From contig CAZECW010000090.1 in assembly GCA_964510585.1 (NCBI GenBank), positions 1 through 32,000 on the forward strand: DNA of 32,000 nt, written 5' to 3'. This DNA is from an uncultured archaeon (GTDB lineage: Archaea > Asgardarchaeota > Jordiarchaeia > Jordiarchaeales > Jordiarchaeaceae). Under the pieces are notes generated by a model, which worked only from the letters and a program-made list of their open reading frames with translations, made no database searches and had not been told where the DNA came from. Each line of letters opens with the position of its first letter. Position 1 is the first letter of the stretch. Made by a program: the position numbers and the translations under genes. Below are positions 2,900 to 30,011 of the stretch, in pieces.

Positions 2900-4048
2900 T
2901 TGGAGGTGTTTTGTTTGCCTCTAAAGATGCATGAAAAAGAGACCATGACTCCTAGGGAGAGAATGGAAACTGTTTTAAATCTACGTGAACCTGACCGTGT
3001 CCCTATTATAGCCTCCTTCCACGCGGCTCAGGCTAGATTAACTGGGATGACCATAGAGGAATTTTTCTTCAATATACCAAAATCCTATGAAGCCACAAAG
3101 AAGGTTTGGGAAATGTTTGGCGGCTTCGATGTGTACACTGGCTGTTCCCCCATTCTTGGTTACTATCTCCCGTGGCCCAATTCTCACAGCATGGTTTATT
3201 TTGATTGGACTCTTCCAAAGGGTAATATTCCCGAGCAGATGCATGAGAAGGAGCTCATGAAGCGTAGCGACTATGATCTAGTAATTGAAAAGGGTTTTGC
3301 TCCCTTTAAGAGGAGACCAGAATTAGAGAAGGACTTTATGAATTATGTGGCGCAGTTCGCAGCATTGGACACTAATAAATGGCTTGAGGAGATGGATGTC
3401 CCATCCCTGTTTGTTGGAGCCATAGAGCCCCCAGTAGATGTTATATCTTTTCTGAGAAGCTTTAACAAGTATCTTACAGATGTGGTGGAGATTCCTGATA
3501 AGGTTGTGGAGGCCTGTGAGGCTACAGTGGATGAAATGCTTGCCACCCTAGACGTGCAAATCCAGTTCCTGAGCGGTGAAAAAGGTCCAAAAGCAGTTCT
3601 CTACGGATTTTCACGCGTAGCATCAAGTTTTATTTCCCGCAAAAAGTTTGAACTATTCTGGCCCCACCTCAAAAGAATCGCGGAAGCCATCATAAGTAAA
3701 GGGTGTATCGTACAGTTCCACCTAGATAATGATTACACAGATTTTCTAGAATACTTCACAGAATTTCCTAAGGGTAAAACTTGGTTCCACCTAGACCAAA
3801 CAGACATATTTAAGGCCAAAGAAATCCTTGGAGATAGAGCGTGCCTAATGGGGAACTTGCCTCCCCAGATAACCGGCCTAGGCTCACCTAAAGAGGTGGA
3901 AGATTACTGTAGAAAACAGATAGAAGGCTGTATGGAAGGCGGAGGCTACATACTTTGCTCCTCATGTGTGCTTCCCGATGACGTTCCCGCCGCAAATATT
4001 AAAGCCATGAAGGACGCTGTAATGAAATACGGCTTCTACCGAGCCTAA
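2900..4048 (+). CDS. UroD/MtaA-superfamily protein, putative corrinoid-dependent methyltransferase (HLD-type)
   Basis: N-terminal MTPRERM...EPDRVP and C-terminal GNLP...GSPKEVEDYCRKQI...GGGYILCSSC..P..VP.ANIKAM are typical of the UroD-like TIM barrel. It carries FHLDND where MtaA has HxC. GGAGGTG at 2902-2908 favours TTG 2915 as the start. Confidence 0.8.
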   Translation: MEVFCLPLKMHEKETMTPRERMETVLNLREPDRVPIIASFHAAQARLTGMTIEEFFFNIPKSYEATKKVWEMFGGFDVYTGCSPILGYYLPWPNSHSMVYFDWTLPKGNIPEQMHEKELMKRSDYDLVIEKGFAPFKRRPELEKDFMNYVAQFAALDTNKWLEEMDVPSLFVGAIEPPVDVISFLRSFNKYLTDVVEIPDKVVEACEATVDEMLATLDVQIQFLSGEKGPKAVLYGFSRVASSFISRKKFELFWPHLKRIAEAIISKGCIVQFHLDNDYTDFLEYFTEFPKGKTWFHLDQTDIFKAKEILGDRACLMGNLPPQITGLGSPKEVEDYCRKQIEGCMEGGGYILCSSCVLPDDVPAANIKAMKDAVMKYGFYRA

Positions 4049-4098
4049 TCCCAAAACAATCTCCAGACAAAAGTACTATTTCTATTTGGAGCGGGTAT

Positions 4099-4808
4099 GT
4101 GTTGCTTTATCGTGATTCCGTCTTAGAAGCCCAGAAGCTATATTACGATATGATTCTAGAATCTGGTTTCCCTGTAAAGGAACTTAAACCAGAAGACTTG
4201 GAAGCAGTTGACTTCGGTCTAAGCAATGGGGAACCTGACTACTTTAAAAGGGGAGTCTTGGAATATACGTACTAGTAAACGAGACCGAATGCGGAAAAAT
4301 TTTATGCTTCCTCCCAAACCATTACGTGCCAGAACATCGCCACCAATCGGTGGTAGTTATGCCCAAAGGCTCCAAAATTGAGAAGGGCTACATCGATTTA
4401 AAGAAACTTGGTTTTAAGGGTTTAGACGAATTTGGGGAAGAGGCTGTCTATATGGTGCCAGAAAAAGAGAACACTTCCATTCCCAAGCGGGGTATTCTCA
4501 TCTCCGGCAAACAGGAATACTTCCACACCATAAAGGGCACCGGCTTAATGTTTTTACTAGGAAAACCCACTGACAAACCCACCTACCCTATACCCGAAGA
4601 GCATCGTCCCCACAACATCGCACTACATAAAGTCTTCCTAGAGCCAGGCGCTGGATTCCATCTGGACGCCAAAGCGCCACACAGTGTAGTTGCAGGACCT
4701 GAGGGCCGAATAGTTATAGAGTTCTCTCTGAAAAGTAGGGATCCTCTAGACATATTCACGAATCCCAAAATAGACAGAATCACCCACATAGAAGAATGCC
4801 CAAAATGA
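4099..4808 (+). pseudogene. D-lyxose/D-mannose ketol-isomerase (YdaE-type cupin), split by a 1-nt frameshift at ~4243-4253
   Basis: GTG 4099 (GGAG RBS) opens VLLYRDSVLEAQKLYYDMILESGFPVKELKPEDLEAVDFGLSNGEPDYFK, which stops at TAG 4273-4275. The -1 frame from 4248 reads KGSLGIYVLVNETECGKILCFLPNHYVPEHRH...GKQE...PHSVVAGPEGRIVIEFSLKSRDPLDIFTNPKI. Together these match the YdaE family pattern DxGL...N....C.K.L..P.Q..PEHxH...KxE...H...EFS..S.D..DIFTDP. The ORF track shows only 4326..4808. Confidence 0.8.
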
Positions 4809-4809
4809 A

Positions 4810-7512: not shown

Positions 7513-7784
7513 TTTCCACTTATCCCCTTCAATATATTGATGGCTGGAGAAGTAAAATGGTATTAGCCACTCACCTCCTAGCTTGATTTTGGAATTATCC
7601 CCTCAAGATTCAGTTGCCAAATAGGGCTTAAACTGTAAAAAATAAAAAGGATATAATGTCTCTTATTTCACCGACAATTGTTTGGATAAGAGGCATAATT
7701 TCTGCATTAGGTTGCCGCTTCCGGCTATTAGTGGAGTTTATTCCCTTGTATTCCGAATTGTGAACTTTAGTTTTTCTTCACTTT

Positions 7785-8831
7785 TTAGTCGAGTTGTATG
7801 GGATATTTTCCATATTCTCTGGCTGCTTCCATGAAGGCTCTCAGATTTTCTAGAGGAGTATCTGGTGGTACCTCGCATCCTGTGGCGAGCATGTACATTC
7901 CACCTGGGGCTGCTTGACGTATGCACTCCTTAACAGCCTGTTTCACATCTTGTGGTGTGCCCTCCAGCATGACTTTGACTGGATCTACGTTTCCCACAAG
8001 AACCACTCTGCCTGCAATCTTTTTCTTGGCTTCTGCAAGGTTGACTGGGGCGTCTATGCTAAGCATTGCGGGGCCCAGTTCGACGAGCTTGTCTATGAGG
8101 TGGCTTACGTCGCCACATACATGTAACGCGCAGAATTTTCCCTCAGCTGCCCAGGTTTTGATTACCTTTTTTAGGGCGGGGGCTGCAAACTTGTCGAATT
8201 GTTTGGGTGAGAGTGTGCCTGCTACGGGGTCTCCGAGGTTTAGCCCCAATCTAACTTCGGTTTGTGCTCTTCCCTCCTCAATGGCGAAATCTGTGGTTAT
8301 ATCCAGCATTTCCTGAACGTAGTCTGGGTTCTGTACAAGGTCCTTGTAAAAATTTTCCGGGCCCCTCAGAGCTGTGAGAAGGGAGATGGGGCCTGCGACA
8401 AGTCCGCCTACGCCTGCAACTTTTCTCAACTCGTTGGTTACTATTTCGCCAGCTTTGAGAATGTTGGGCAGCCTGCCGTCTTTTCTTGGGTCAGGCATTC
8501 GTATATTTTTAACGTCTTTCTTCAAATCTTTTACCGGGAAGTCTACTACCTCTGGGAGCCTATCCTCATGGAATTTTATTTTGCAGCCAAAAGCTTCGGC
8601 TTCGACGAGGGTGTCACCTAGGACAAGTACTACGTCTGGGGTGTATAGTTTGTATGCCTTAATAATGGCGTGGGCCATTGTTTCGGGATCAGTTATAAAC
8701 TCTTTTATGGGTACTCCTGCAAGTCTCGCGTTTCCCGCTCCCACGGAGGGGTAAGCTGGAACCCTATCTGGTTCCTGCCTGAGGAAAACTCTCTTCATTC
8801 TCTCTCTTACGGTTAACTCTTCACCAGACAT
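7785..8831 (-). CDS. MtaA/MtbA/CmuA-family methylcobalamin:thiol methyltransferase (UroD superfamily)
   Basis: 348 aa. EPDRVP; EAEAFGCKI; DPRKDGRLP; canonical Zn ligands LHVCG (HxC) and LATGCEVP (distal Cys); GNVDP. GGAGG RBS; 35 nt downstream of a corrinoid protein gene. Confidence 0.88.
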   Translation of the reverse strand: MSGEELTVRERMKRVFLRQEPDRVPAYPSVGAGNARLAGVPIKEFITDPETMAHAIIKAYKLYTPDVVLVLGDTLVEAEAFGCKIKFHEDRLPEVVDFPVKDLKKDVKNIRMPDPRKDGRLPNILKAGEIVTNELRKVAGVGGLVAGPISLLTALRGPENFYKDLVQNPDYVQEMLDITTDFAIEEGRAQTEVRLGLNLGDPVAGTLSPKQFDKFAAPALKKVIKTWAAEGKFCALHVCGDVSHLIDKLVELGPAMLSIDAPVNLAEAKKKIAGRVVLVGNVDPVKVMLEGTPQDVKQAVKECIRQAAPGGMYMLATGCEVPPDTPLENLRAFMEAAREYGKYPIQLD

Positions 8832-8866
8832 GATTTATTTAACCTCCAATACCTCGCGTCCTTTTT

Positions 8867-9505
8867 TTATCCTAAGAGTTCTTTAGCCTTTTGGACTGCT
8901 TCCCGCGCGTCTTTTCCATAGGCATCGGCGCCAATTTTTTCAGCGAAATCTTGTGAGGTGGCGGCGCCTCCTATTAGGATTTTAACACTTTCTCTTAGTC
9001 CCTCGCTATCTAGAGCCTTTATGGTGTTAATCATTTCAGCCCTAGCTGACGAGATAATTCCGGACATGGCTAGAATGTCTGGTTTATGCTTTTTAACATT
9101 CTCTACGAAGGTTTCTGGGGGAACGTTTTCACCAATGTCAATTACCTCAAATCCAGCTGACTGTAACATTATTTTAACTATGTTTTTGCCTATGGTGTGT
9201 ATATCTGTATAAGCGGTGCCCAGTAGCACCTTGCCGTGTCCGCTCGTCCTTTTCTCTTTAAGGTGCGGTTCCAGTATCTCTAAAGCTGCAGACATGGTTT
9301 CAGCCGACATTAAGACGTCAGAAATAAAGTATTCCTTATTACCAAACTTTTCCCCAACAACTTCTATGCCCTTCATTAGTCCTTTAGTTAGAGCATCGTA
9401 GGCATCTATTCCCTGTTCTAAAGCCTCTTTTGCTGCTTCCCTTGCAAGGTCCACGTTAGCCTCTATTACTGCGGTTGAAAGCTTTTCAAAGATCCTTTCG
9501 GCCAT
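8867..9505 (-). CDS. Methyltransferase corrinoid (B12-binding) protein 1
   Basis: 212 aa. Cap domain GLMKGIEVVGEKF...EYFISDV; B12 motif DIHTIGKNIV (DxHxxG); MSG; LIGGAA; IGADAY. AAGGAGG RBS. Confidence 0.92.
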   Translation of the reverse strand: MAERIFEKLSTAVIEANVDLAREAAKEALEQGIDAYDALTKGLMKGIEVVGEKFGNKEYFISDVLMSAETMSAALEILEPHLKEKRTSGHGKVLLGTAYTDIHTIGKNIVKIMLQSAGFEVIDIGENVPPETFVENVKKHKPDILAMSGIISSARAEMINTIKALDSEGLRESVKILIGGAATSQDFAEKIGADAYGKDAREAVQKAKELLG

Positions 9506-9568
9506 CTGCAGTCCTCCTTCTGACGCGAGAAGTTTTTAATAAATTGTATTTTTACCTCTACTAATCAG

Positions 9569-9586
9569 TATTATAAACTTTTGTCC
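9569..9586 (-). promoter_or_regulatory. BRE/TATA promoter of the corrinoid protein-methyltransferase pair
   Basis: The minus strand reads GGACAAAAGTTTATAATA about 65 nt upstream of ATG 9505, so this pair has its own promoter, separate from the sulfatase-like gene. Confidence 0.55.
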
Positions 9587-9638
9587 AATAAATAGTATGA
9601 ATCATAAAAACCAAAAAATAAATAATTTTTTAGAAGCT

Positions 9639-11036
9639 TTACAGAAGCCCCTCCATTTTGTACCATTCCTCAGCTGCTTTGGACATAACTTCCCTGTGGT
9701 CTATTAGTTCCCCGCCTGCGTCTTGGAGAATCCTTTGAAACATTATGTCTGCTATGTCGCGGTTTTCCTCTACAATGTTCTGGGTCTGGTTTGGATCCTT
9801 TCTCAAATCGTAGAGGTATTCTCTGCTCCTAGAATAATTCGCTATATACACCCATTCTTTGTCTCTTGTCCAGACATAACCGTTGAAGCCAGAGGTTGCG
9901 TAGCTTCGCGCCTTCCGCTCTCCGTCTATTAGAGTCCAGAGCTCTTCTCCGTCTAATGGTGTGGGAGGTTCTATTCCGAGGTATGTTAAAATGGTGGGTA
10001 CTATGTCGTGATTGTATACGAAGCCTGAAACGCGTTTACCACCTTTAAATCCTTGGGGGTGCCGAATGAAAAGCGGTATATCTACTAATTCGGGATAGAG
10101 GCCTCTGGGAATCTTACCTATTAAGTTATGCTCACCCAACTGGTGCCCATGGTCAGATGTCAGCACCACTAGTGATTTATCCAGCAGTTCCAGCTCCCTC
10201 ATTTTTTCTAAAAATTTCCCAAGCCAAGAATCAACCATTGTGACTTCGGCTGCATAGAGTGCCTTCATGTATCTCAACTCTTCGGGTGTGAGATAATCAA
10301 CACTCGTTGAGTAGTTGGGTGTGATGACTTCTCTACCAGTGTAGGGTGGATGGTAAAGGTCTCGGTATTTTTGGGGCGGATCCCAGGGCTCGTGGGGGTC
10401 AAATGAATCAATAAAGAGGAAAAATTTCTCAACATCTTTGTTTTCTTCTATCCACTTGGCTGCGGCGCTAAATACTTGGGGCGCGAAGTAGTCCTCCTCT
10501 TTTCGGCGTTCTGAAATGTTTTTGAGATACTGTGGAAGTATTGTCATCATGTGGTCACATTTTCCGCTCTGTGGTATGTAGCGTTCCAATTGTTTGGGGT
10601 CAATTTTGGGTGCAGTTTTGTAAGGGTCTGCTTCCTGGCCTCTTATTAACTGCCACTGATGGTATCCTCGATGAAAATTCATGCTCGGCTTGAAGTAGTG
10701 ATACGTGTCTGTTATGAAGGTGGTGGTGTAACCGTTTCTGCGTAGAATCTCGGCAATGGTGTTTTGCGAGTCTGGAATAGGTTGCCACCCGTAAGCTTGA
10801 ACCATATCTCCCCTGCAGGGATGGTACTCCTTGAAGGGGAAGGTGCGGATTCCCGTATGTATTGATCTTCTGAAGGGAATTGTTGGTAGAGATTCGGGAT
10901 GTGCGTCTTCAAATATGATGCTCTCTCTGGCTAGGGCATCTAGATTAGGTGTCTTTATCCAACTGTTTCCGTATATTCCTATGTGGTCTTTTCTCAGAGT
11001 GTCAAGGAGGATTACTACTACATTCAAGCCCTTCAC
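9639..11036 (-). CDS. Sulfatase-like hydrolase (alkaline phosphatase superfamily) with Thr at the nucleophile position
   Basis: 465 aa. NVVVILLDTLR.DH, TPNLDALA, PTIPFRRSIHTG (TxPxR in place of C/SxPxR), DPHEPWDPP, YAAEVTMVD, TSDHG..LGEH..IGK, LYDL..DP..T.N. Confidence 0.85.
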   Translation of the reverse strand: MKGLNVVVILLDTLRKDHIGIYGNSWIKTPNLDALARESIIFEDAHPESLPTIPFRRSIHTGIRTFPFKEYHPCRGDMVQAYGWQPIPDSQNTIAEILRRNGYTTTFITDTYHYFKPSMNFHRGYHQWQLIRGQEADPYKTAPKIDPKQLERYIPQSGKCDHMMTILPQYLKNISERRKEEDYFAPQVFSAAAKWIEENKDVEKFFLFIDSFDPHEPWDPPQKYRDLYHPPYTGREVITPNYSTSVDYLTPEELRYMKALYAAEVTMVDSWLGKFLEKMRELELLDKSLVVLTSDHGHQLGEHNLIGKIPRGLYPELVDIPLFIRHPQGFKGGKRVSGFVYNHDIVPTILTYLGIEPPTPLDGEELWTLIDGERKARSYATSGFNGYVWTRDKEWVYIANYSRSREYLYDLRKDPNQTQNIVEENRDIADIMFQRILQDAGGELIDHREVMSKAAEEWYKMEGLL

Positions 11037-11178
11037 ACCAGCTTTTATAACTGGGAAAACAATTGGTTCTATCCAAATTCCAATGATTAAACTAAGCCGC
11101 TAATTTCCGGAGCAATACTTTAATCTAATCTGTTTAAAAATATATTTTCATTAAAAACTAATCTTTCGACTCGAAAAG

Positions 11179-11817
11179 GTGATAATTATGACTGCTCAGC
11201 TCGTTGAAGCTATGGCTAACCTAGAGAGGAGCGCTGTACTGGATAATGTGGAAAAGGAAATTAAGAAGGGCACAGACCCCCTAAAAATAATAGAAAGCCT
11301 CTCTCAAGGATTAAAAATTGTGGGTGACCTTTACGATAAAAAGGAATATTTTCTAGCGGAGCTTATAACCGCCGGAGACATTTTTCAAAATGCTTTTCAA
11401 AAAATAAAACCCGTACTGGAGAAAAGGGGCCTTAAAACCCAAGTCCAAGGAAAAATAGTCATAGGAACAGTGCGCGGAGACCTACACGACATTGGAAAAA
11501 ACATCGTCATCACCATGCTTGTTTCATCTGGATTCTTCGTGGAAGACCTAGGAGTCGATGTACCTGCCGAAAAATTCATAGAAGCAGTAAAGAGAATAGA
11601 CGCAAAAATTCTGGCCATGTCAGCCCTCCTCACAGTGGCACTAGACGCCGCAAAAGAAACAATTAAACTGCTAGAAAAAGAAAACCTCAGAAACAAAGTA
11701 AAAGTCATCTGCGGAGGCGCCGCTTTCGACGAAAACACCGCCAAAAGAATCGGCGCCGACGCCTACGGAAAAGATCCCCTGGACGCAGTAAAAATCTGCC
11801 AAAAACTCCTCCAGTAA
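11179..11817 (+). CDS. Methyltransferase corrinoid (B12-binding) protein 2
   Basis: 212 aa. GLKIVGDLY...EYFLAEL; GTVRGDLHDIGKNIV; DLGVDVP; MSALL; ICGGAA; IGADAYG. GGTGA RBS; divergent from the sulfatase-like gene. Confidence 0.92.
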   Translation: MIIMTAQLVEAMANLERSAVLDNVEKEIKKGTDPLKIIESLSQGLKIVGDLYDKKEYFLAELITAGDIFQNAFQKIKPVLEKRGLKTQVQGKIVIGTVRGDLHDIGKNIVITMLVSSGFFVEDLGVDVPAEKFIEAVKRIDAKILAMSALLTVALDAAKETIKLLEKENLRNKVKVICGGAAFDENTAKRIGADAYGKDPLDAVKICQKLLQ

Positions 11818-18450: not shown

Positions 18451-18492
18451 TTTCGTGTGTTACTTTTCTTTGCTAATCTAAAGGGATGCCCC

Positions 18493-19596
18493 ATGATTGA
18501 GGTTTTTGAGGATCTTGTAACTAACCGTCATGTTAATGCTTTGCGATGGAAAAATAGTGGTAGGAAGATTTTCGGCTACTTCTGTTCATATGCTCCTGAG
18601 GAAATTATTCATGCTGCGGGAATTATACCTGTGAGAGTGATGGGTGGTTCCGAAGCTATTACTCTGGCAGATGTTCACCTGCCGAGTTATGTGTGTTCTT
18701 TTTCTCGCAGTTGTTACGATTTGGGCCTGAAGGATGTTTACAATTATCTGGATGGTGTAGTGTTCCCCTATACTTGTGATACTATGGTTTCGCTTTACAA
18801 TATTTGGAGGAAGGATATTAAAACACCCTATGTGGGCTTCGTTGATCCTCTATGTGCAAAGAGGGAGACCTCAAGGAAATATTTTCGGGAGGAAATTGCT
18901 CGCTTTAGGTCGTCGCTTGAAAAATTTCTGGGGAGGGAGATTTCAGAGGATTGTCTCGAGAAGTCAATTGAAATTTATAATGAGAATAGGAAACTTTTGA
19001 AGAAAATTTATGAGCTTAGAAAAAATTCGATTCCCCCCATTTCTGGAGTGGAAGCCTTAAGCGTAGTTAGATCGAGTATGTTGGCTCCCAAGGAGGAGCA
19101 CAGTCGCCTACTTGAAAACTTCCTGATTAAAATCTTAGAGAGGGAAGATGTGCCTGAGCCGGGGTTGAGGATACTTGTTTCTGGTAGTGTGATTTATGAC
19201 TCTGAAATACTTAAAATGATTGAGGATGCTGGGGGGCTCATAGTAACCGATGATCTTTGCACTGGGACCCGTTACTTCTGGGATATGGTTAACCCTAAAA
19301 CTTCTCCTCTGGTCGCCATTGCGGATCGGTACTATGAGAGGATTCCCTGCCCTTGTAATTATCCTCCCGAAAAACGTTTAGAACATATCATGAATCTTGT
19401 AAAGGACTTTAAAGTTGAGGCGGTCATCTTCGTCTTACAGAAGTTTTGTGATCCTCACTTATTCGACTATCCCTTTATGGAGGATAGATTGAAGGAGGTT
19501 GAAATACCAACACTTCTCATTGAAACTGAACATGTGAACTCGCCCATAGGTCCCCTTAAAACAAGAATCGAAGCCTTTTTTGAAACAATTCAATAA
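18493..19596 (+). CDS. 2-hydroxyacyl-CoA dehydratase / benzoyl-CoA reductase family subunit (HgdB/FldC/BzdN-like)
   Basis: GYFCSYAPEEIIHAAGIIPVRV, VCSFSRSC, FPYTCD, DDLCTGTRY, CPC, KFCDPHLFDYP, TRIEAFFE. ATG 18493 is preferred over the ORF-track start at 18457. Confidence 0.9.
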   Translation: MIEVFEDLVTNRHVNALRWKNSGRKIFGYFCSYAPEEIIHAAGIIPVRVMGGSEAITLADVHLPSYVCSFSRSCYDLGLKDVYNYLDGVVFPYTCDTMVSLYNIWRKDIKTPYVGFVDPLCAKRETSRKYFREEIARFRSSLEKFLGREISEDCLEKSIEIYNENRKLLKKIYELRKNSIPPISGVEALSVVRSSMLAPKEEHSRLLENFLIKILEREDVPEPGLRILVSGSVIYDSEILKMIEDAGGLIVTDDLCTGTRYFWDMVNPKTSPLVAIADRYYERIPCPCNYPPEKRLEHIMNLVKDFKVEAVIFVLQKFCDPHLFDYPFMEDRLKEVEIPTLLIETEHVNSPIGPLKTRIEAFFETIQ

Positions 19597-19610
19597 TTGG
19601 TGGATTAAAA

Positions 19611-20810
19611 TTGACAGAAAGAGGAAAAAAGTCTCTGGAGACTTCAAAAGAAGTCTTTAAGTTAGCTTCCCAACACTACCTGGGTGCGCATGAAGCCAAA
19701 AGGATGGGTAAACCTGTAACTTGGATGACTGGATACGACCCTGTAGAACTACTCTACGCCATGGATATCGCGGTTGTGTATCCTGAAAATTATTCTGCGT
19801 TGTGCGCCGTCACCCAAGTGGCACCAAAATTTATTGAGAAATGTGAAAGTTTAGGGTATTCTCGTGATTTGTGTTCTTATGCTAGAAATACCATAGGCAC
19901 GACATTTTCTCAGGATGCTCCCTTTGGCGGCCTTGCTCCTCCCGACTTTTTAGTTGTGGCAAGGAAATTTTGTAAGACCCATATAAAGTGGTGGCAAGTA
20001 CTAAGCCGCAGATTTAACTGCCCCCTCTTCATAATAGACGCCCCATACATTACCGGTAAAGTGGAAGACTACCACATAGACCACTACTTAGCCCAGCTTG
20101 AAGAGTTAATAGCGTTTTTGGAGAAGCAGACTGGGAAAAAAATGGACTATGATAAACTCGCAGAAGTAGTTAAACTGTCTGATAGGGCGAGCGCTCTTTG
20201 GGACGAAATTATGGAAATGCGCAAAAATGTTCCCTGCCCTGTGGGAGCCGCTGATATTTTATCCTGCATGTTTGGCATAGTGACTCTTCCCGGAACCCGT
20301 ACAGCTGTAGAGTTCTATGAGAGATTGAGGGATGAGGTTAAGGAGAGGGTCAAGAACAAGATTGGCACCGTGCCCGTGGAGAGATTCCGTCTAACCTGGG
20401 ACAACATAGTCATGTGGTATAATGTGGGATTAACAAACTACTTCCAAAAGTATGGAGCAGTTTTTGTATTTGAAGGCTACACTATGGTTTGGAGTGGACG
20501 CCTAGACCCTCAAAAACCATTAGAATCGCTGGCCAAGAAGTACCTAACACCCTTCATAGAGCTGAACAATAGGGCCTGGTCCATGGTTGAGCTTTGTAAA
20601 CAGTATAAGGTGGACGGAGCAGTAATGCACTCCAACAGAAGCTGCAAATTTTTATCACTACTACAATATGAACTAAAAGACATCTTGATGGAAGAACTTG
20701 GGATACCCTCACTAATACTAGAAGGAGACCACTGCGATGGAAGAGCCTACTCCGACGCCCAAATTAGGACCAGAATCGACGCCTTCATGGAACTATTAGA
20801 GAAGAGATAG
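19611..20810 (+). CDS. 2-hydroxyacyl-CoA dehydratase / benzoyl-CoA reductase family subunit (HgdA/FldB/BzdO-like)
   Basis: PVELLYAMD..VVYPEN, GYSRDLCSYAR, PPDFLV....C...KW, HSNRSCK, EGDHCDGR.YSDAQIRTRIDAFME. Confidence 0.9.
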   Translation: MTERGKKSLETSKEVFKLASQHYLGAHEAKRMGKPVTWMTGYDPVELLYAMDIAVVYPENYSALCAVTQVAPKFIEKCESLGYSRDLCSYARNTIGTTFSQDAPFGGLAPPDFLVVARKFCKTHIKWWQVLSRRFNCPLFIIDAPYITGKVEDYHIDHYLAQLEELIAFLEKQTGKKMDYDKLAEVVKLSDRASALWDEIMEMRKNVPCPVGAADILSCMFGIVTLPGTRTAVEFYERLRDEVKERVKNKIGTVPVERFRLTWDNIVMWYNVGLTNYFQKYGAVFVFEGYTMVWSGRLDPQKPLESLAKKYLTPFIELNNRAWSMVELCKQYKVDGAVMHSNRSCKFLSLLQYELKDILMEELGIPSLILEGDHCDGRAYSDAQIRTRIDAFMELLEKR

Positions 20811-20879
20811 ATTGATTCCTCCACTTATGCGTTGAGCCATCCGCTTACATTAACAATTGGCGATGTTGGGAGAGCCGTT

Positions 20880-21656
20880 ATGTATGTTGCCGGAATAGAT
20901 ATTGGGGCGCTTACCGCAAAATCGGTCATTTTGAAAGACGGCAAAGTTTTGGCTTTCACTGTTATTCCCTCGGGGTCAGATAGCAAGGAAACTGCACAGA
21001 AAGTTATGGATGCCACCCTAAGTAAAGCCGGACTCTGCTTGAAAAATGTTGATTTTACGGTTTCCACAGGTTATGGTCGCATAAGTGTTCCCTTTGCAGA
21101 CCTGCAGGTTACTGAGATTTCCTGCCACGCTAAAGGTGCTTATTCACTTTTTCCCACCGCAAAAACAGTGATTGATATTGGGGGACAGGACAGTAAGGCC
21201 ATCAAATTAGGCGAGAACGGTAAGGTGGTGGACTTTGCTATGAATGATAGATGCGCCGCTGGTACGGGTAGATTTCTGGAGGTTATGGCTAAGGCTCTGG
21301 AGGTGAAATTAGAGGATATGGGAGACCTCTCTCTTCAATCTAAAAATAGGGCAAAGATCAGTAGCATATGCACAGTTTTTGCGGAGTCCGAAGTAATTTC
21401 ACAAATCTCTAGGGGAACCCCCAAAGTGGACATAATAGCGGGGATACATGATGCCATTGCTAGCAGGGTCTTTGGAATGGCCAGCAGGGTAAAAATTGAG
21501 AAGGATTTGGTTATGACTGGGGGAGTAGCCAAAAATAAGGGCGTTATAAAGGCCCTGGAAGAGAAGGTGGGATTCAAAATTCTGGTGCCCGAAGAACCAC
21601 AAATAGTGGGAGCCTTGGGTGCAGCTATAATAGCCCAAGAAAAAGCAGCAAAATAG
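20880..21656 (+). CDS. ATP-dependent [4Fe-4S] activator (HgdC/HadI/BadFG-BcrAD ASKHA family)
   Basis: YVAGIDIGALTAK, STGYGR, EISCHAKGA, IDIGGQDSK, MNDRCAAGTGRFLE, ISSICTVFAESEVIS, TGGVAKN, PQIVGALGAA. ATG 20880 follows a GGGAG RBS. Confidence 0.93.
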   Translation: MYVAGIDIGALTAKSVILKDGKVLAFTVIPSGSDSKETAQKVMDATLSKAGLCLKNVDFTVSTGYGRISVPFADLQVTEISCHAKGAYSLFPTAKTVIDIGGQDSKAIKLGENGKVVDFAMNDRCAAGTGRFLEVMAKALEVKLEDMGDLSLQSKNRAKISSICTVFAESEVISQISRGTPKVDIIAGIHDAIASRVFGMASRVKIEKDLVMTGGVAKNKGVIKALEEKVGFKILVPEEPQIVGALGAAIIAQEKAAK

Positions 21657-21817: not shown

Positions 21818-23206
21818 GTGGCTGACATAAAGCCGAAATATTTCACGGAACAAGAAATTATTGATTTATTGTCCGAAGTGACTGATGAGGAACTACAAAA
21901 CTGTCATAAGCACGAGCTTGTCCCCTCAAAAGACGTCATTCTGTATCAAGGTATACCCGGTGAGGCCAGAGTTAAGGATTCCAAGGGTAAAGAGTACATT
22001 GATTTTACATCCCAAGCTTGGACTCTGGGAATAGGCTACATACAGCAAGACGTCATGTTTGCAGCCATGGAGCAGATGAAACGCTTATCTCACGCCCGCA
22101 ACCAGTTCCAGACGATTCCTCGTATAAAGCTTGTCAACAAACTTTCACAAATTGCACCCGGCAACCTGAAAAACGTGGTGTTAAACACTCAAGGAGGCTC
22201 TGTGGCAGTTGAAGTGGCTCTAAAATTAGCAATGGTGAACAGACCAGCGGACCAAGATATTTTCATAACTATGTGGGGAGGATACCACGGCAACACTCTC
22301 GCCATGATGGCTCCCACACACTACATGCCCCTAGTAGTTCGATACCGCGGCTTCGGAAGAGAACACTTCGTTAAATCCCCCTTCCCCTACTGCTACCGAT
22401 GCCCCTTCGGCGAAAAAGACATCTCCGAATGCGGAAATCTATGTCTAACCATGCTTCAAAAAACCATAGATTACGGTTGCCAAGGATTGCCCATAGGCGT
22501 GCTACTTGAACCCATTCAGGGACCAATGGGTGAAGTGCCGGCTCCCCCCGAGTTCATAAAGGGTGTCAGAGAGGTTTGCGATAAGAACAATCTCCTACTT
22601 ATCTTCGACGAGTCCCAAACTGCATTCGGTAGAATAGGCACAATGTTTGCAGCTGAATACTATGAGACAGTCCCCGACATTATGGCTCTCACTAAGGCTC
22701 TGGGAGGTGGATTCCCCATGGGCGCAACACTAGCCAGCGAGAAACTGGGAATGTTCACCCCCGCAGAACAGCATAGCACCTTCAGCGCAAACCCCGTCTG
22801 CTACGCCGCCGCACTGGTAAACTTGATGCTCATAGAAAAGCTGGACTTGCCCAAGAGAGCAGAAGAAATGGGAAGATACCTAATGAAAAGATTTCTGGAG
22901 CTTCAGGAGAAATACCCTATAATGGGTGATGTGCGGGGCATTGGACTATTCCAGGGAGTGGAACTGGTAAAAGACCCCAAAACAAAAGTTCCCGCAAACA
23001 CCGCAGCAGAAGAATTCGTAAATGAAGCCCTCAAAAGAGGATTAATACTCGACCTAAGCCAACCAGTAATAACCATACATGGAGACTTTTATAGAAACAC
23101 CCTAACCATAAAACCACCACTAGTAATTACACGAGAACAAGTTGACCGCGCTCTAGAAATTTTTGAAGAATGTCTACAAACAGTTACACCCCTCATAAAA
23201 GCGTAA
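21818..23206 (+). CDS. Class III (omega-amino/ornithine/GABA-type) PLP aminotransferase
   Basis: KEYIDFTS, GGYHGNT, LLEPIQG, IFDESQTAFGRIG, PDIMALTKALGGGFP (PLP Lys), HSTFSANP, GDVRGIGLFQGVELV, IKPPLVI. Confidence 0.92.
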   Translation: MADIKPKYFTEQEIIDLLSEVTDEELQNCHKHELVPSKDVILYQGIPGEARVKDSKGKEYIDFTSQAWTLGIGYIQQDVMFAAMEQMKRLSHARNQFQTIPRIKLVNKLSQIAPGNLKNVVLNTQGGSVAVEVALKLAMVNRPADQDIFITMWGGYHGNTLAMMAPTHYMPLVVRYRGFGREHFVKSPFPYCYRCPFGEKDISECGNLCLTMLQKTIDYGCQGLPIGVLLEPIQGPMGEVPAPPEFIKGVREVCDKNNLLLIFDESQTAFGRIGTMFAAEYYETVPDIMALTKALGGGFPMGATLASEKLGMFTPAEQHSTFSANPVCYAAALVNLMLIEKLDLPKRAEEMGRYLMKRFLELQEKYPIMGDVRGIGLFQGVELVKDPKTKVPANTAAEEFVNEALKRGLILDLSQPVITIHGDFYRNTLTIKPPLVITREQVDRALEIFEECLQTVTPLIKA

Positions 23207-23408
23207 AAAACTAAACCCCTCACCTTCCTTTTTTCAATTCTCCAACCGAAAAAATGAGACTCCTGCCTCCCCCTAATTGTTCTAAACAGCTTGAAAATCT
23301 ATTTATATTTCGAAGATACAATTAAGAAATTATTTAAGAAAGAAGTTGGTAAATACTTTAGCAAAAAATTGAAAAATTTAATCCCTAAGGATTCAGGAGG
23401 CTAAAGAG

Positions 23409-25007
23409 TTGGGAGAACAATGCATATTAACACATGATGTTGGCACATCAGGTAACAAAGCAGCACTAGTAAGTACATCAGGCAAAATATTAGGAGTAGC
23501 CGAGAAGAATTACGATGTGAACTATCCAAAGCCGGGATGGGCGGAACAAGACCCAAAACAGTACTGGAACGCAGTAGTAGAAACAACCAGAACCCTCCTC
23601 AAAAAAACAAAAACCAACCCCAAAGACATAATTGGAATAAGCCTAGACGCCCAAATGATGTCCGCAATACCCGTAGACAAAGACGGAAACGCCCTCAGAC
23701 CCGCAATGATCTGGCTCGACTCAAGAAGCGAAAAACAATCCGACGAATTCGAAGCCAAATTCGACCCCATAAGCCAACTACTAAACTTCGGAAACCTACC
23801 AATGACAACAGCAAAAGACGTCATCCCCAAAATCTGGTGGATTCGCGACAACGAACCAAAAATATTCCAAAAAGCCTACAAATGGTGCGACGTTAAAGAC
23901 TACGTAATACGCCAACTTGTAGGCGACTTCTACACCGACTGGAGCACCGCACTCCTCTTCGGACTCTTCCACATCCAAAACCACGTCTGGGTCGACGAAC
24001 TAATACAGGGAGTAGGCCTATCAAGAGACAAACTATGCGAAGTTGTAAAAACCACAGACATCGTAGGAACACTAACAAAAGAAGCCGCACAACAGCTGGG
24101 ACTCACCACAGAAACACCAGTAATATGCGGCGCGGGAGACGCCCCCGCCACCCACGTAGGCTCCGGCGCAATAAGAACAAACGAAGGACACCTATACCTC
24201 GGCACATCCGGATGGGTATCCGTAACAGTCGACAACTTCACCGCCGACCCCGACACAGGCATAGCCGCCATATACTCCGGAGTCCCAGGCAAGTTCATGC
24301 TCATAGGTGAAATGGAAAGCGTCGCAGCCCCCTTCAAATGGTTCAAAGACAACCTCGCAGGCCTAGAATGCCTAATGGCTATGGAGAAAGGATGCGACCC
24401 CTACGACGTCATAAACGAAGAAGCAGCGTCAGTAGGACCCGGCGCCAAAAAACTAATCTTCCTACCCTGGATGCTGGGGGAAAGAGCCCCCATACAAGAC
24501 ACCATGGTCAGAGGAGGCTTCATCAACCTAAGCTTCCACCACGGCAGACCAGAAATAGCCAGAGCAATACTAGAAGGAGTAGCCTACCACATAAGATGGA
24601 TAACAAAAAACATACAAAAAATCCTAGACCGAGGAGTCCTAGACCCAGACCAGCCCAAACCTCAAATCTCATCCCTAAACGCCTGCGGAGGAGGAGCCAT
24701 AAGCCCACTTTGGATGCAAATATTCGCCGACGTCCTAAACAAAAGAATACGCCCCCTCAAAGAACCCCGCCACGTCGCAGCACTAGGAGTCGCCATAATA
24801 TCCATGGTAGGACTAGAAATATACCCAGACTTCGAAACCGCCGTAGACAAAATCATCAAAATCGAAAAAGACTACTACCCAAACGAAAACCTAAAACCCA
24901 TATACGACGAAATGTACAACACATTCGAAGGAATCTACCCCAAACTAAAAGAAGTCTACCAAACACTCAACAAAGGCGAAACCACACAAAAACCATTAGA
25001 ACCCTAA
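23409..25007 (+). CDS. FGGY-family carbohydrate kinase (xylulokinase-like)
   Basis: HDVGTSGNKAAL, PGWAEQDP, IWLDSR, KIWWIRDNEP, GAGDA, LGTSGW, LIFLPWMLGERAP, RAILEGVA, GGGA.S.LWMQIFADV. GGAGG RBS, TTG start. Confidence 0.93.
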   Translation: MGEQCILTHDVGTSGNKAALVSTSGKILGVAEKNYDVNYPKPGWAEQDPKQYWNAVVETTRTLLKKTKTNPKDIIGISLDAQMMSAIPVDKDGNALRPAMIWLDSRSEKQSDEFEAKFDPISQLLNFGNLPMTTAKDVIPKIWWIRDNEPKIFQKAYKWCDVKDYVIRQLVGDFYTDWSTALLFGLFHIQNHVWVDELIQGVGLSRDKLCEVVKTTDIVGTLTKEAAQQLGLTTETPVICGAGDAPATHVGSGAIRTNEGHLYLGTSGWVSVTVDNFTADPDTGIAAIYSGVPGKFMLIGEMESVAAPFKWFKDNLAGLECLMAMEKGCDPYDVINEEAASVGPGAKKLIFLPWMLGERAPIQDTMVRGGFINLSFHHGRPEIARAILEGVAYHIRWITKNIQKILDRGVLDPDQPKPQISSLNACGGGAISPLWMQIFADVLNKRIRPLKEPRHVAALGVAIISMVGLEIYPDFETAVDKIIKIEKDYYPNENLKPIYDEMYNTFEGIYPKLKEVYQTLNKGETTQKPLEP

Positions 25008-25390
25008 ACCCCAACCTTTTTTTGAACAACCAACTCAAACACAACCAGCACCAACCTAAAACAGAAAAAAATCTATAACCCCAACAGTCTAATCCAAACC
25101 GTGACCAAAAACTTATCCAAATATAAACTTAAATAGTCATACACGTCACACCAAAATAAAATCAAAAAGCATCCATCTCCTAAAGTCCCCCAAACCCAAA
25201 CCTATCCAGATTAAAACAAAACAATAAAACAAAAATTAAAACTAACAAGCATTAAAACCGAAACACCACCAAAAAACGGAAAAACGTCAAAAAAATCCAA
25301 CAAAAACACTACAAAACCCTAACAGAAACGCATACACCAGCACCAAAAATTATAAAAATTGAAAGAATGAGAACAATAGCTCCAGTCAAC

Positions 25391-26695
25391 TCAAACTAGC
25401 TTACTCGTCTTCCAGGTACCCAGAGCACGACCAAGCTCCTTATGATCCTCAGCATACTTCTCCAGCGGAATACCCTTCATAGCAGCATCAATAGCCTGAC
25501 GGAAGGAAATAGCGCCAGCACGGGGGCCATCAGGATGAGCATGCATCGCCCCACCCACTCCCACCACAAAGTCCCTGCCAATATCAGCCATAATCTGAGG
25601 AACAAGCTGAACAATAATACCACCAGCAGGCATAGGCATCGTCGGCCTCAAATGATAGAATGGAAACGTCAACTCACGCCAAATCTGCAGGTAAGTCTCC
25701 TTCATAAAAGGAGCCTTCCCATACGGAGCGGGATAAACCTCTATATCCGCTCCTGCCAGTCTGCAGAATTTTCCCAGTACGAGCCTGGCATCTATTCCAT
25801 AGTGGGGTGATGGATACATGGTTGCAGCGAAATCGGTATGAGCGAGGATCGGAACTTTTATGCTTGGGTCTTCGGCTAGGTCTCTGAATGTTTCGTATCC
25901 TGTTGTGATGATGTTGACCATGAGGGCGTTGGCTCCTAGTTCTATTGCTCTTTCTGCGAGTTCTAGGGTTTTTTTGGGTCGGTCGGTTATGTTTACTGTG
26001 TAGAGTGTTTTTTCTCCTTTTTCTTCGTTTGCTTTGTCTATTGCTTCCATGAATTTTACTACTCTGTCTTCTACTCGGTTTAGTTCCATGTCTGCTAGTA
26101 GTTCGTCGTCTTTTATTAGGTCTACTCCGCCTGCTGCGACTTCATATGCTAGGTCTGCTCCTATTTCGCATGGTGAGTAGACGCAGGGTTTTATCATGTT
26201 GTTTAGTATGGGTCGGTCTTTTATTCCTAGTACTTGTCTTACTCCTTGTATTCCGAATTTTGGTCCTTTGAATCCTTGTACCCATTTTTTGGGGAAGTTG
26301 AGGTCTAATAGTTTTATTTTTCCTGCGGCTGCGAGGTTTCCGACTACTGTGCTGAATAGTAGGGGTAGGTTGGGTTCTCCGAGGTTTCTTATGGGGTATG
26401 CTATTTGTATTATCCAGTGTCTTTCTTCTGTTTTTGGTAGTTGCCATTGGTGTGGTGGGATTTCGTATACTCCTATTACTCGGGCTGCGTGTAGTTTTCT
26501 GACTTCAGGTGTTTCTTTGGGTACTGGTGTCCATGTTCCGGTGCTTTGTTCTAGTGCTGCGGCTTGGGCTAGTGTGTATCCGTCTAGCCATGAGGGTTGG
26601 ATTGTGTAGTATGTTGCGATTATGTATTCTTCTGGGTCTATGCCTTCGGGTAGTGCTTCGGGTGTTGTTAGTAGTTCGTACTTTTTTTCCACCAT
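25391..26695 (-). CDS. RuBisCO-like protein (Form IV RLP)
   Basis: ALEQSTGTW, VGN, NNMIKPCV, GGVDLIKDDE, ILAHT, RLAGAD..YPAPYGK, PAGG, VGGAMHAHPDGPRAGA.SFRQAIDA. Several residues needed for carboxylation are substituted. AAGGAGG RBS. Confidence 0.92.
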   Translation of the reverse strand: MVEKKYELLTTPEALPEGIDPEEYIIATYYTIQPSWLDGYTLAQAAALEQSTGTWTPVPKETPEVRKLHAARVIGVYEIPPHQWQLPKTEERHWIIQIAYPIRNLGEPNLPLLFSTVVGNLAAAGKIKLLDLNFPKKWVQGFKGPKFGIQGVRQVLGIKDRPILNNMIKPCVYSPCEIGADLAYEVAAGGVDLIKDDELLADMELNRVEDRVVKFMEAIDKANEEKGEKTLYTVNITDRPKKTLELAERAIELGANALMVNIITTGYETFRDLAEDPSIKVPILAHTDFAATMYPSPHYGIDARLVLGKFCRLAGADIEVYPAPYGKAPFMKETYLQIWRELTFPFYHLRPTMPMPAGGIIVQLVPQIMADIGRDFVVGVGGAMHAHPDGPRAGAISFRQAIDAAMKGIPLEKYAEDHKELGRALGTWKTSKLV

Positions 26696-26740
26696 TTTTT
26701 TCCTCCTTTCATTTTTTAGTGGTTTCCAGTGAATACATAT

Positions 26741-26774
26741 TTTTTATGCTTTTATTTTTATGCTTTTATTTTTA
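26741..26774. repeat. Short tandem repeat, 14-bp unit x2.4, upstream of the RLP gene
   Basis: TTTTTATGCTTTTA / TTTTTATGCTTTTA / TTTTTA, starting about 45 nt upstream of the RLP start codon. Confidence 0.6.
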
Positions 26775-27265
26775 TTGGGGTGTTTTGGGTGATGGTGTGG
26801 GATGGTTCGGTTATGCTTTGAAGAAAGAGCTTGCCTATAGCTGATTGTTTAATGTTTGCCCTTACCCTTTTGTCTTGTTGGTGTAATCTACTTGTTTTCG
26901 CGTTTTTATTTACTTTTCCACGTTTTCTATTCTAAACTTTGCATGGTGAAGGTTGTTAATTCGTGTGGGTGGGAAGTGAGGTGTCTTCGGTCTTTTTTAA
27001 TAATGTGTCTATTTGTTAGGGTTTTGTTTGGCGTTTGGTTTGTAGGGTTTTTTCGTGGTTTGGAGGTTTATGGAGGTAGATAAAGTGAGTCTGATTCTCT
27101 TTTGTTCTTTGTTTGAATGTTTGGTTGTCGGTTTTGTGTTTTTGTTTTTTGTTTTTCTTTTTTGGTTGGGGAGTTTGTTGGTGGCGATAGTTTTTTTAGT
27201 GGGGATGGTTCGTTATGTTATATTGTGGGTTTCTGTGTTTGTCTGTGTTGTTTGGAGGTTTGTTT

Positions 27266-27730
27266 TTGGTTGTTGAAGGTGTGACGGGTGATGTTGTTAG
27301 GGAGATTGTTGATGTGATGTGTGTTGTTTTTAATAGTCAGAGTCAGGATTTTAAGGATAGGATAAAGGGTATTACTGGTGGTTTGCGTAGGGTTTATCGG
27401 TTTGATGTTACTGACCTTGGTCTTTCTTTTGATGTTGAGCTTACTTCTGGGGGAGAGGTTGTTGTGCATTGGGATTTGCTTCCTGGGGAGCCGAATTTGG
27501 TGGTTTCTTCGGAGGCTTTGGTGTTTGATGGTGTGATGACTCAGAGGGTTAATCCTATGAAGGTTATGTTGTTGCGGAAGGTTAAGATTAAGGGTTCTCT
27601 TATGGAGGTTTCCAAGTTTAGGCCTATTCTTCCTTTGTTGAGTCCTTCTTATAAGAAGGCTAGGGTTCACATTGCGGAGAAGTATGGTTTGCAAGAGGCT
27701 TTGAAGAAGATGGATGAAGCGAAAATTTAG
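27266..27730 (+). CDS. SCP2 sterol/lipid-binding domain protein
   Basis: C-terminal pattern GEPNLVVSS....FDGVMTQRVNPMKVMLLRKVKIKGSLMEVSKFRPIL resembles the SCP2 fold. GGAGG at 27254-27258 favours TTG 27266 over ATG 27215. Confidence 0.7.
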   Translation: MVVEGVTGDVVREIVDVMCVVFNSQSQDFKDRIKGITGGLRRVYRFDVTDLGLSFDVELTSGGEVVVHWDLLPGEPNLVVSSEALVFDGVMTQRVNPMKVMLLRKVKIKGSLMEVSKFRPILPLLSPSYKKARVHIAEKYGLQEALKKMDEAKI

Positions 27731-28013
27731 TGCAAACAGTTAATGTTCTCGGGCATGTGAGGTTGTGCGGGGTTCTTTTTGCCCAAGGGTTTTTGTATTG
27801 TGGGATTTTTGTTTATTGTTGGTCTGTGGGATTGTTTGTAGAGGTTGGTTTTTGGTTTTATACCTGATTTTTTGGATGCTTTTTTATGTTTTTGTGGGTT
27901 TTCTGGTGGTGTGTCTTGTTTTTGTGTGGCTTTTTGGTTTCAAAAGTTTAAAAAGGGTGAGGGGCTTACTGGTGAATTTGTCTGTGGTTTTGTTGATAGC
28001 TTTTTGATGGGTT

Positions 28014-30011
28014 ATGGTTATGTGGTTATTTTTTGTGAGGTTTCTCAGGGGCTTGTATAGGGTTCCTTGCAGGTATCCTTTTGGTTACCTGATTGTTTTA
28101 GTGGAGGTTGTTTTTGTTTGCTTGTTTTTTTGGGGTTTATCTCCTTTTGAGGGGAGTGTGGTGGTTTCTCTTTTTCCTTTTGGGTATTTTTTCTTTTTTA
28201 GTTTGGTTGTTGATGTTGTTTTTTGTTTTTTTCTTTTTTCTAGGGACTCTTTTGTTTTTCCGGAGCTTGGTTTGAGATGTAGGGTTAATGTTTTTTCGGC
28301 TATTGTGGCTGTTACCTTGTTGCTGTTGCTGTTGTTGGTTTATCCTGTTTTGTGGGGTTTGGCGAATCATCTCTTGGTGATAAGGGCAACGGTCAATCAA
28401 ATGTTTTTGTCTTATGTTCTCTCTCTGCCCGTTGCAGTTGATTCTTTTAGGCTTTACAATTTGTATCGGGGGGTCAATGGTTTGGTTTTGTACTCTATGG
28501 GTTTTATTGCTTCTAGCACAGATGTTGTGGATAGAATTTTCTGGATTGTCAGCATTCGGTACTTTTATCTTTTGCCCGCGACTGAGAGGTTGAGTCGGGT
28601 TCGGTTTTTGAGGTTTCCTGTGGCTGTTGCTCCTGCTGTTTATTTGGTGGAGGTTTTTCAGTTGGCGGGTTCTCCGCTTACTTATATGGTTTCGGCGATT
28701 GTTTATTGTGTGGTGATACCTACCCTTATTTTTGAGGCTGTAGCTTTGGGCACTTCGACAACTTTTCGCTCTGGTGAGGTTAGGGTTCGGGTGAGTCAGT
28801 TTGATGTTATCCGCAGGTTGATAACTTGGGATATCTTGAGGGATACTGGTCTGGAGGATACTTTGTGTTTTGCCGATTTTAGAGAAACCTTCAGGGTGTG
28901 GACTGGAGTGGTGGCGTTTAAAACGGGGGAGGGGGAGGCTTCCTTGATGGTGGTTCCTTCGCTGCACCCTGGGCCTTTACTTTCTTTTTGTGGTTCTCTG
29001 CTTTCCTATAAGATTTCTGAAGCTTTGAGGGAAAATTATGAGTTAGTAATGGTTCCCCACTCTCCAAGTACGCATGATTTTAATCCTTCGTCGGCTTCCG
29101 AAATATATAGGATTGTGGAAGCGGTTCGCGGCTTTCTGGGGGGTGGGGATATGGAGTTTTACGAGTTTGCTTCGCCCATTTTTTCTGAGGAGAGTGTTGG
29201 AAGGGTGGGAAGATTGCGGGTCTTTTGTCAGGCTTTTAGTAATGGTGTAGACCAAAAGGTGCTAGTTTTCTGCGACCTGTCCGACGAGAACAACGGCGAC
29301 ATATCATATGGTGTAGGAAATTATCTCATTGAAACCGCTAAAAATGTGGGAGCAAAAGACGCCATAATTATCGACAAACACTTTTATCCCCACAGGGAGG
29401 AGCGTCCCCTCTACATGGAGGATCCCCTTGCTGAGGAGCTAAGAGCACTGGTGGAGAAGGCTGTGGGTAGAGCTTTGCAGTCCAGAAAAGAAAGGTTTTC
29501 GTTTGTGGGGTCCAAAATCACTAGGCGCGAGATAGAATCAGAGTGTGGAGAACTCGCTAAGGCTATAGGAAGGGATGGAATATCCATATTTGTTATAGAG
29601 TTGGAAAAAAGTAGGGAAAAATCTGCCTACATTCTCATAGATGCAAACACGGTGGAGCCCAAGTTAGGGGAAAAAATATTGAAGCTTTTTCTCAAAAGTG
29701 GATTCAGGGAAGATAATACTATAATTATGACCAGTGACACCCACCAAGACTTACATTTTCTAAAGTCGTTCGGCTCAAAAGAGGAAACCCACGAACCAAC
29801 CCTTAAAATAATTGAGAAACTTTTAGGCCAACTATCAAAACCCCGAAAAGCGTCGGTATCCCTGAATCAAGTGCTGAGCGAAGTGGATGTGTGGGGTCCG
29901 CTAAACGGAGAACGCTTTTTCACAGTCCTACTCAAAGCTTTCCCTAGAGCCTTATCCGCCCTACTACTCTACTGGTTGGTGGCCTTTATACTATCCCTAC
30001 TTACACTCTAG
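28014..30011 (+). CDS. DUF2070-family archaeal membrane protein
   Basis: Hydrophobic N-terminal third, then VPSLHPGPL...GS, HSPSTHDFNP, G.DGI, IDAN and TSDTH motifs, and a C-terminal TM helix. The start is uncertain. Confidence 0.75.
   Translation: MVMWLFFVRFLRGLYRVPCRYPFGYLIVLVEVVFVCLFFWGLSPFEGSVVVSLFPFGYFFFFSLVVDVVFCFFLFSRDSFVFPELGLRCRVNVFSAIVAVTLLLLLLLVYPVLWGLANHLLVIRATVNQMFLSYVLSLPVAVDSFRLYNLYRGVNGLVLYSMGFIASSTDVVDRIFWIVSIRYFYLLPATERLSRVRFLRFPVAVAPAVYLVEVFQLAGSPLTYMVSAIVYCVVIPTLIFEAVALGTSTTFRSGEVRVRVSQFDVIRRLITWDILRDTGLEDTLCFADFRETFRVWTGVVAFKTGEGEASLMVVPSLHPGPLLSFCGSLLSYKISEALRENYELVMVPHSPSTHDFNPSSASEIYRIVEAVRGFLGGGDMEFYEFASPIFSEESVGRVGRLRVFCQAFSNGVDQKVLVFCDLSDENNGDISYGVGNYLIETAKNVGAKDAIIIDKHFYPHREERPLYMEDPLAEELRALVEKAVGRALQSRKERFSFVGSKITRREIESECGELAKAIGRDGISIFVIELEKSREKSAYILIDANTVEPKLGEKILKLFLKSGFREDNTIIMTSDTHQDLHFLKSFGSKEETHEPTLKIIEKLLGQLSKPRKASVSLNQVLSEVDVWGPLNGERFFTVLLKAFPRALSALLLYWLVAFILSLLTL

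Follow-up and report, generated by a model that had tools for sequence, protein, structure and literature searches.

A conserved module of a RuBisCO-like protein, an FGGY kinase and a deaminating enzyme in Asgard archaea, possibly for the breakdown of 2-amino-1,3-diols

Only a handful of RuBisCO-like proteins (RLPs) have been characterized, and all RLPs are described as using substrates that resemble ribulose 1,5-bisphosphate (RuBP) via an enediolate (PMC10176493). Here we analyse a form IV RLP gene that neighbours genes for an FGGY kinase and a class III pyridoxal-phosphate (PLP)-dependent aminotransferase in a 32,000-nucleotide stretch (the window; positions 1 to 32,000 of contig CAZECW010000090.1, assembly GCA_964510585.1) from an uncultured archaeon of the Jordiarchaeia, with near-identical loci in metagenome-assembled genomes of Candidatus Jordarchaeia (Freyarchaeia, Asgard). 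The three genes almost certainly constitute a real conserved module. For its role we propose the oxygen-independent breakdown of a hydrophobic 2-amino-1,3-diol, for which a sphingoid base (sphinganine or phytosphingosine) is the likeliest candidate; the balance on this reading we see as even. All three proteins scored below the cut-off of every characterized NCBIfam family listed. While the RLP lineage itself is already known, the module appears to be an undescribed RLP pathway, with its substrate inferred: in the literature covered, which left out several primary RLP papers, we found neither an assigned function for the lineage of Archaeoglobus fulgidus O28685, to which this RLP belongs, nor a paper that connects RLPs with sphingoid bases or describes the module.

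Phylogenetic analysis placed the RLP in one clade with O28685 (AAB89661.1; support 97/95; 61% [60.8%] identity), a lineage that presumably corresponds to 'IV-Aful'. The clade also takes in Thor-, Loki- and Helarchaeia, Hadarchaeales and Chloroflexota sequences and leaves MtnW (37% identity) and OiaX (29%) outside, in line with the initial annotation of the locus, which had proposed a non-MtnW RLP and named grouping with MtnW as the result that would speak against it.

To define the module, we surveyed 41 Asgard genomes for the RLP, for kinases of the clade described below (threshold >550 bits) and for an amine slot ('deaminase') occupied by a window-type class III aminotransferase, a HemL-like aminotransferase or a saccharopine-dehydrogenase-like protein (SacDH). 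The RLP was present in 20 genomes, 18 of which carried the kinase and all 20 a deaminase, whereas 19 of the 21 RLP-less genomes had neither; the two exceptions (87% and 81% complete) carried both. Module genes were lost together within families f7, f9 and f15, and although 11 of the 41 genomes stem from two related families, co-loss is still seen in three others. At the level of individual loci, the kinase lay ≤8 kb from the RLP in 34 of 80 genome loci, compared to 2.3% for a random gene of the window genome, and a deaminase-type gene did so equally often (34 of 80 vs. 3.2%).

SacDH and aminotransferase never shared an RLP locus. The amine slot varies by lineage, with the HemL-like enzyme in Loki- and Helarchaeia and SacDH in Thorarchaeia, Archaeoglobi and Hadarchaea; orthologues of the window aminotransferase (48–56% identical) accompany the RLP at L018, L126, L149, L186, L199 and L200. 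The same slot is thus taken by three amine-to-carbonyl families that are not homologous to one another. Beyond Asgard archaea, the set is found in numerous anaerobic archaea and bacteria. Same-strand operons were found in the orders RLP–aminotransferase–kinase (L149), aminotransferase–kinase–RLP (Chloroflexota L186, L200), SacDH–RLP–kinase (Hadarchaeales L184 and L188, plus L198) and kinase–RLP–SacDH (Dehalococcoidia L299), as well as at L289, and A. fulgidus has SacDH–RLP. Conservation of the kinase and the aminotransferase with orthologous RLPs, on which the initial annotation had staked its proposal, was thus recovered, provided that non-homologous stand-ins for the aminotransferase are counted. 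An Fhs/FolD/FtcD block and a 331-aa gene were considered as further module parts and dismissed as synteny confined to Thorarchaeia.

We realigned the RLP with form I, form III, MtnW and OiaX references (spinach numbering throughout). The realignment agreed with the earlier manual one in that E60, T65, N123, K175, K201, D203, E204, H294, K334, G403 and G404 are kept, that K177C, R295T, H327V and S379A are present, and that Asn occupies the position of the MtnW Lys (N123). Four residues for RuBP binding or catalysis, K177, R295, H298 and H327, are C, T, A and V in the RLP; all four are intact in the same genome's own form III RuBisCO, whose active site is complete. The residues lost are mainly those holding the far half of RuBP. 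Among 116 RLP homologues, E60, T65, N123, K175, K201, D203, H294, K334 and G403 were invariant, position 177 was Cys in 113 (Asp in A. fulgidus) and position 327 Val in 113 and Ile in the other three. R295T and S379A proved peculiar to this genus: position 295 is Met in 112 homologues, and as position 379 is Ser in 111, S379A is a local change and no feature of the clade. The loss of the distal (P5) phosphate site speaks against RuBP as the substrate, in line with the claim that such substitutions preclude RuBP carboxylation; carboxylation of another substrate is still allowed, because K334, E60 and N123 are invariant. The structure model (pLDDT 92) has the RuBisCO/RLP fold, with MtnW 2oek as the best match (TM 0.86); its similarity to MtnW, to the C. 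tepidum RLP and to form III is much the same (TM 0.86–0.89).

Several observations concern the RLP gene and its relatives. In close relatives the gene has a ~30-nt insert with an in-frame TAA, probably an archaeal intron, at window positions 25730–25735 (codons 321–322; L005:2860-3030, L114:7257-7430, L113, L115, L116, L010), which the window copy lacks; the RLP genes of genomes G021 and G031 are also in pieces. Strand composition switches sharply at ~25785, some 50 bp away from the site of the insert, within an inversion spanning 22300–29200 (A+C 0.67 before and 0.29 after). Of the dozens of same-sign switches in the genome this is the strongest; it is common to same-genus loci and absent in L008 and L011. 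A 414-aa RuBisCO-family protein (L169:7995-9239) with K177C and intact R295, H327, K334 and S379 branches between form III and the RLPs and is possibly an intermediate, as judged by its residues and position. Sister RLPs at L161:1968-3293 and L162:8004-9332 (46–47% identity), likewise with IKPC and K334, adjoin kinases of XylB-like or GlpK-like type, which fall outside the kinase clade of the module, and probably serve separate sugar pathways.

The window kinase scored 320 against the xylulokinase (XylB) family TIGR01312 (cut-off 380) and belongs to a clade (support 100/100) apart from XylB and GlpK, which holds RLP-linked and aldolase-linked kinases alike. Nested within it are the kinases of L327, L329 and L330, encoded tail-to-tail with homologues of sphingosine-1-phosphate (S1P) lyase, and a lyase homologue beside a clade kinase matched the solved S1P lyase 1 with an E-value of 3.5e-79. 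A partner survey of 121 genomes of the Archaeoglobus-containing phylum retrieved the kinase in seven, three with RLP, four with S1P lyase and none with both. The 41 Asgard genomes (window's included) yielded no S1P lyase, the hits being ~390-aa MfnA-like proteins, and no kinase was annotated next to plasmid S1P lyases. The closest plasmid kinases (Butyrivibrio, Burkholderia ambifaria) have a class II aldolase beside them, together with an aminotransferase that came out as the top match for the RLP-linked HemL-like enzyme (41% identity); aldehyde dehydrogenase is also among the partners of aldolase-type kinases. The kinase family would hence feed three alternative routes, via RLP, S1P lyase or aldolase, two of them ending in a C–C lyase, and the pairing of the plasmid kinases suggests that the RLP stands in for a C–C cleaving enzyme. 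In five genomes the gene ahead of the kinase is HisC-like, of a family that acts on P-O-CH2-CH(NH2)- groups; HisB is missing from four of these genomes, and the fifth has, next to hisB, another hisC-like gene.

Genome G000 contains one more kinase of this clade, in two parts at the ends of two contigs (C118:36500-37551 and C107:139-1107; L180 and L181), that adjoins an AbfD/HpaB-family gene and is intact in G003. In three lineages, a ~410-aa gene without an NCBIfam match, peptidase-like by eye and a candidate amide hydrolase, lies beside the kinase (L278:6429-7688, L125:3207-4418, L325:3086-4345).

The intact P1 site points to P-O-CH2-C(=O)-CH(OH)-R as the RLP substrate, which is analogous to the C1–C3 half of RuBP and bears an alkyl tail, and since deamination and phosphorylation of a 2-amino-1,3-diol would yield this compound, such a diol is probably the substrate of the module; that it is a long-chain base we judge to be an even call. 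From the initial annotation, a mono-phosphorylated 2-keto substrate derived from an amine thus survives as the best reading; the proposed amino-sugar or amino-polyol identity was not substantiated and is probably incomplete. A hydrophobic 2-amino-1,3-diol is preferred on account of the kinase clade shared with S1P lyase, the HisC-like partners, the non-polar distal site and neighbouring genes for SCP2 (PF02036). The SCP2 of the window is the only one detected in its genome, and SCP2 also stands directly upstream of the RLP in L149 and L199, that is, in three lineages against a background of 0.1–0.5%. The two PF03417 amide hydrolase genes between kinase and RLP in L199 count on the same side.

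We infer the class and chain length of the substrate, the sequence of steps and the RLP reaction alike. In the pathway proposed, a sphingoid base would be scavenged from dead biomass, the aminotransferase would remove its C2 amine and the kinase phosphorylate C1, in either order. A precedent for the first step is the bacterial aminotransferase FumI, which forms the 2-keto product of a sphinganine analogue (PMC3136697). Bound in the intact P1/Mg-carbamate site, the product would be converted to a 2,3-enediolate, after which the RLP most likely breaks the C–C chain, by analogy with the lyase and aldolase whose place it takes and because no other cleaving enzyme is conserved nearby. Favoured is a RuBisCO-type carboxylation followed by C2–C3 hydrolysis, giving 3-phosphoglycerate and a fatty acid (from phytosphingosine, a 2-hydroxy fatty acid). 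Such CO2-dependent cleavage is possible as E60, N123, K334 and the Mg/carbamate site are kept, and it would do without the C4 hydroxyl that an aldolase requires. As a whole, the idea of a CO2-incorporating cleavage enzyme acting on a deaminated, phosphorylated long-chain (sphingoid) substrate is tentative and rather unlikely, with isomerisation or phosphate elimination by the RLP as alternatives.

A number of findings weigh against this pathway. K177, required in true RuBisCO, is Cys or Asp here, which speaks against carboxylation, although the OiaX sampled also lacks K177. Many of the surveyed genomes are close kin, and one Hadarchaeales genome holds both RLP and S1P lyase. The archaeal S1P-lyase homologues, identified by sequence alone, might cleave short amino-diol phosphates. 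No ceramidase was a conserved neighbour, and PF04734 (ceramidase) had no match in the window genome in a search that also matched no control; a PF03417-like amidase homologue is encoded on contig C34. Finally, β-oxidation and 2-hydroxyacyl-CoA dehydratase genes (counted as HGD-D pair plus activator, acyl-CoA dehydrogenase, enoyl-CoA hydratase, 3-hydroxyacyl-CoA dehydrogenase, acyl-CoA ligase and AbfD-like genes) occur near 20–23% of RLP loci compared to a background of 24%; lipid-related neighbours other than SCP2 were therefore discarded as evidence. This applies to the 2-hydroxyacyl-CoA dehydratase-like (HGD-D) pair and activator at 18457–21656, just upstream of the window aminotransferase. 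A non-orthologous set of this kind flanks the Hadarchaeales operon.

The alternative that survives best, although we consider it distinctly less probable than a long-chain base, is that the same module handles a short, soluble 2-amino-1,3-diol or amino-polyol, with the RLP isomerising or cleaving a ketose 1-phosphate. Co-occurrence data leave the chain length unfixed, no enrichment of lipid genes was seen, short sugars are the normal substrates of FGGY kinases and class II aldolases, and L199 and L281 have amino-acid permease-like genes in the vicinity of the module. Short substrates fit less well with the pairing of the kinase clade with S1P-lyase homologues, the non-polar distal site and the SCP2 genes beside the RLP, and an ordinary aminopentitol would presumably give a pentulose that needs no RLP.

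Much less probable is a role in methionine or 5′-deoxyadenosine salvage, in which the RLP would be an MtnW-type enolase or an R. rubrum-type 5-methylthioribulose-1-phosphate (MTRu-1-P) isomerase and its neighbours unrelated. MtnW is indeed its best NCBIfam, PDB and fold match, and a non-polar distal site suits a methylthio tail as well. The RLP nevertheless scored below the MtnW family cut-offs (363.7 vs. 409; 312 vs. 513.6), as it did for the OiaX family (182, cut-off 700), and forms a separate clade. MtnX, MtnB and MtnD gave zero tblastn matches (Priestia queries) in the genome, which is 96% complete, and TIGR03328 remained below its cut-off there. Together with the Asn in place of the MtnW Lys, these results make an MtnW role unlikely. 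MtnA, found above cut-off on a contig other than the window's, leaves a small door open for an MTRu-1-P role, but MtnA is likewise present in control genomes without a PF00016 match, e.g. Thermotoga maritima and Sulfolobus acidocaldarius. As noted initially, no mtn genes lie near the RLP, and a cupin partner, as for the R. rubrum-type RLP, was absent from the conserved neighbour clusters identified. Salvage would also leave the tight link to kinase and deaminase unexplained.

That the module is biosynthetic, making an amino-polyol or a sphingoid-like lipid part, is more improbable still: transaminases and amine dehydrogenases are reversible and no uptake system is conserved among the neighbours of RLP loci, but the ATP-dependent kinase, its alternative partners (lyase; aldolase plus aldehyde dehydrogenase) and the patchy distribution with co-loss indicate breakdown. 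The least credible explanation, chance proximity of three genes in this genus, could appeal to the missing operon in the window and to the RLP loci of Jordarchaeales and many Lokiarchaeia that lack both partners, yet those genomes hold the partners elsewhere and at least four other lineages have true operons.

The three reading frames of the window were correctly called, coordinates and Pfam domains being in agreement (Table 1). They do not form one operon here, as stated previously, given the 203-bp gap between aminotransferase and kinase, oligo-T tracts 3′ of both genes and the convergent RLP. A promoter and terminator scan of the window, run with a bacterial model on an archaeal host, stayed at chance level, and an RNA-run search gave shares of ≤0.11 only. 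Further upstream, positions 2900–11817 encode two URO-D/methyltransferase-family and two corrinoid proteins together with a GH38 alpha-mannosidase and a sulfatase.

Table 1. Positions of the module genes, the RLP active-site motifs and the SCP2 gene in the window
Feature	Coordinates	Strand	Remarks
Class III PLP aminotransferase	21818..23206	+	462 aa; PF00202; PLP Lys293, Asp264; proposed amine-to-ketone step
FGGY kinase	23409..25007	+	532 aa; PF00370/PF02782; proposed C1 kinase of a 2-amino-1,3-diol or its 2-keto product
RuBisCO-like protein (RLP)	25391..26695	-	434 aa; PF02788/PF00016; A. fulgidus O28685 lineage
KDDE carbamate/Mg motif (K201–E204) of RLP, intact	26102..26113	-	
K175-P-C177 (K177C) of RLP	26183..26191	-	
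H294, R295T, H327V and loop-6 K334 of RLP	25715..25840	-	distal phosphate site non-polar, loop-6 Lys kept
SCP2 lipid-carrier protein	27215..27730	+	PF02036; divergent from RLP; probable accessory

With three enzymes and a short list of substrates named, and one version of the module in the cultured A. fulgidus DSM 4304, the question is directly testable. If true, the proposed pathway would account for the disposal of sphingolipid backbones by microbes of anoxic sediments, and many labels in databases (methionine-salvage enolase, xylulokinase) would be corrected. Should the RLP carboxylate, it would offer a living model of how RuBisCO and RLP chemistry relate, and Asgard archaea, Archaeoglobi, Hadarchaea and Chloroflexota would be degrading sphingolipids anaerobically with a form IV enzyme that fixes CO2.

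Among known systems, A. fulgidus O28685 shares the E60/N123/K334/M-or-T295/V327 pattern of the window RLP and differs in its Asp at position 177 and in having a SacDH-like deaminase directly upstream instead of a class III aminotransferase. MtnW/YkrW, the DK-MTP-1-P enolase (2oek, 2zvi), is the closest solved structure, with the same intact P1 and Mg site and non-polar distal site, and acts on a 1-phospho-2-keto compound, as we propose for the RLP; it carries Lys at N123, lacks E60 and K334, and needs MtnB and MtnX. OiaX, the 3-oxo-isoapionate-4-phosphate decarboxylase/transcarboxylase, likewise joins an RLP and a kinase in a catabolic route with C–C chemistry and, in the sequence sampled, keeps K334, but it retains R295, its partner is a four-carbon acid sugar kinase rather than an FGGY kinase, and no deaminase is involved. 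Eukaryotic long-chain-base degradation by sphingosine kinase and S1P lyase resembles the proposed C1 phosphorylation and subsequent chain cleavage, whereas in the window the kinase is of the FGGY type, deamination has an enzyme of its own and cleavage would fall to the RLP. In the L-fuculose/L-rhamnulose route, an FGGY kinase also produces a ketose 1-phosphate, and bacterial relatives of the window kinase use a class II aldolase; here, entry would be by deamination instead of isomerisation, with the RLP in the place of the aldolase.

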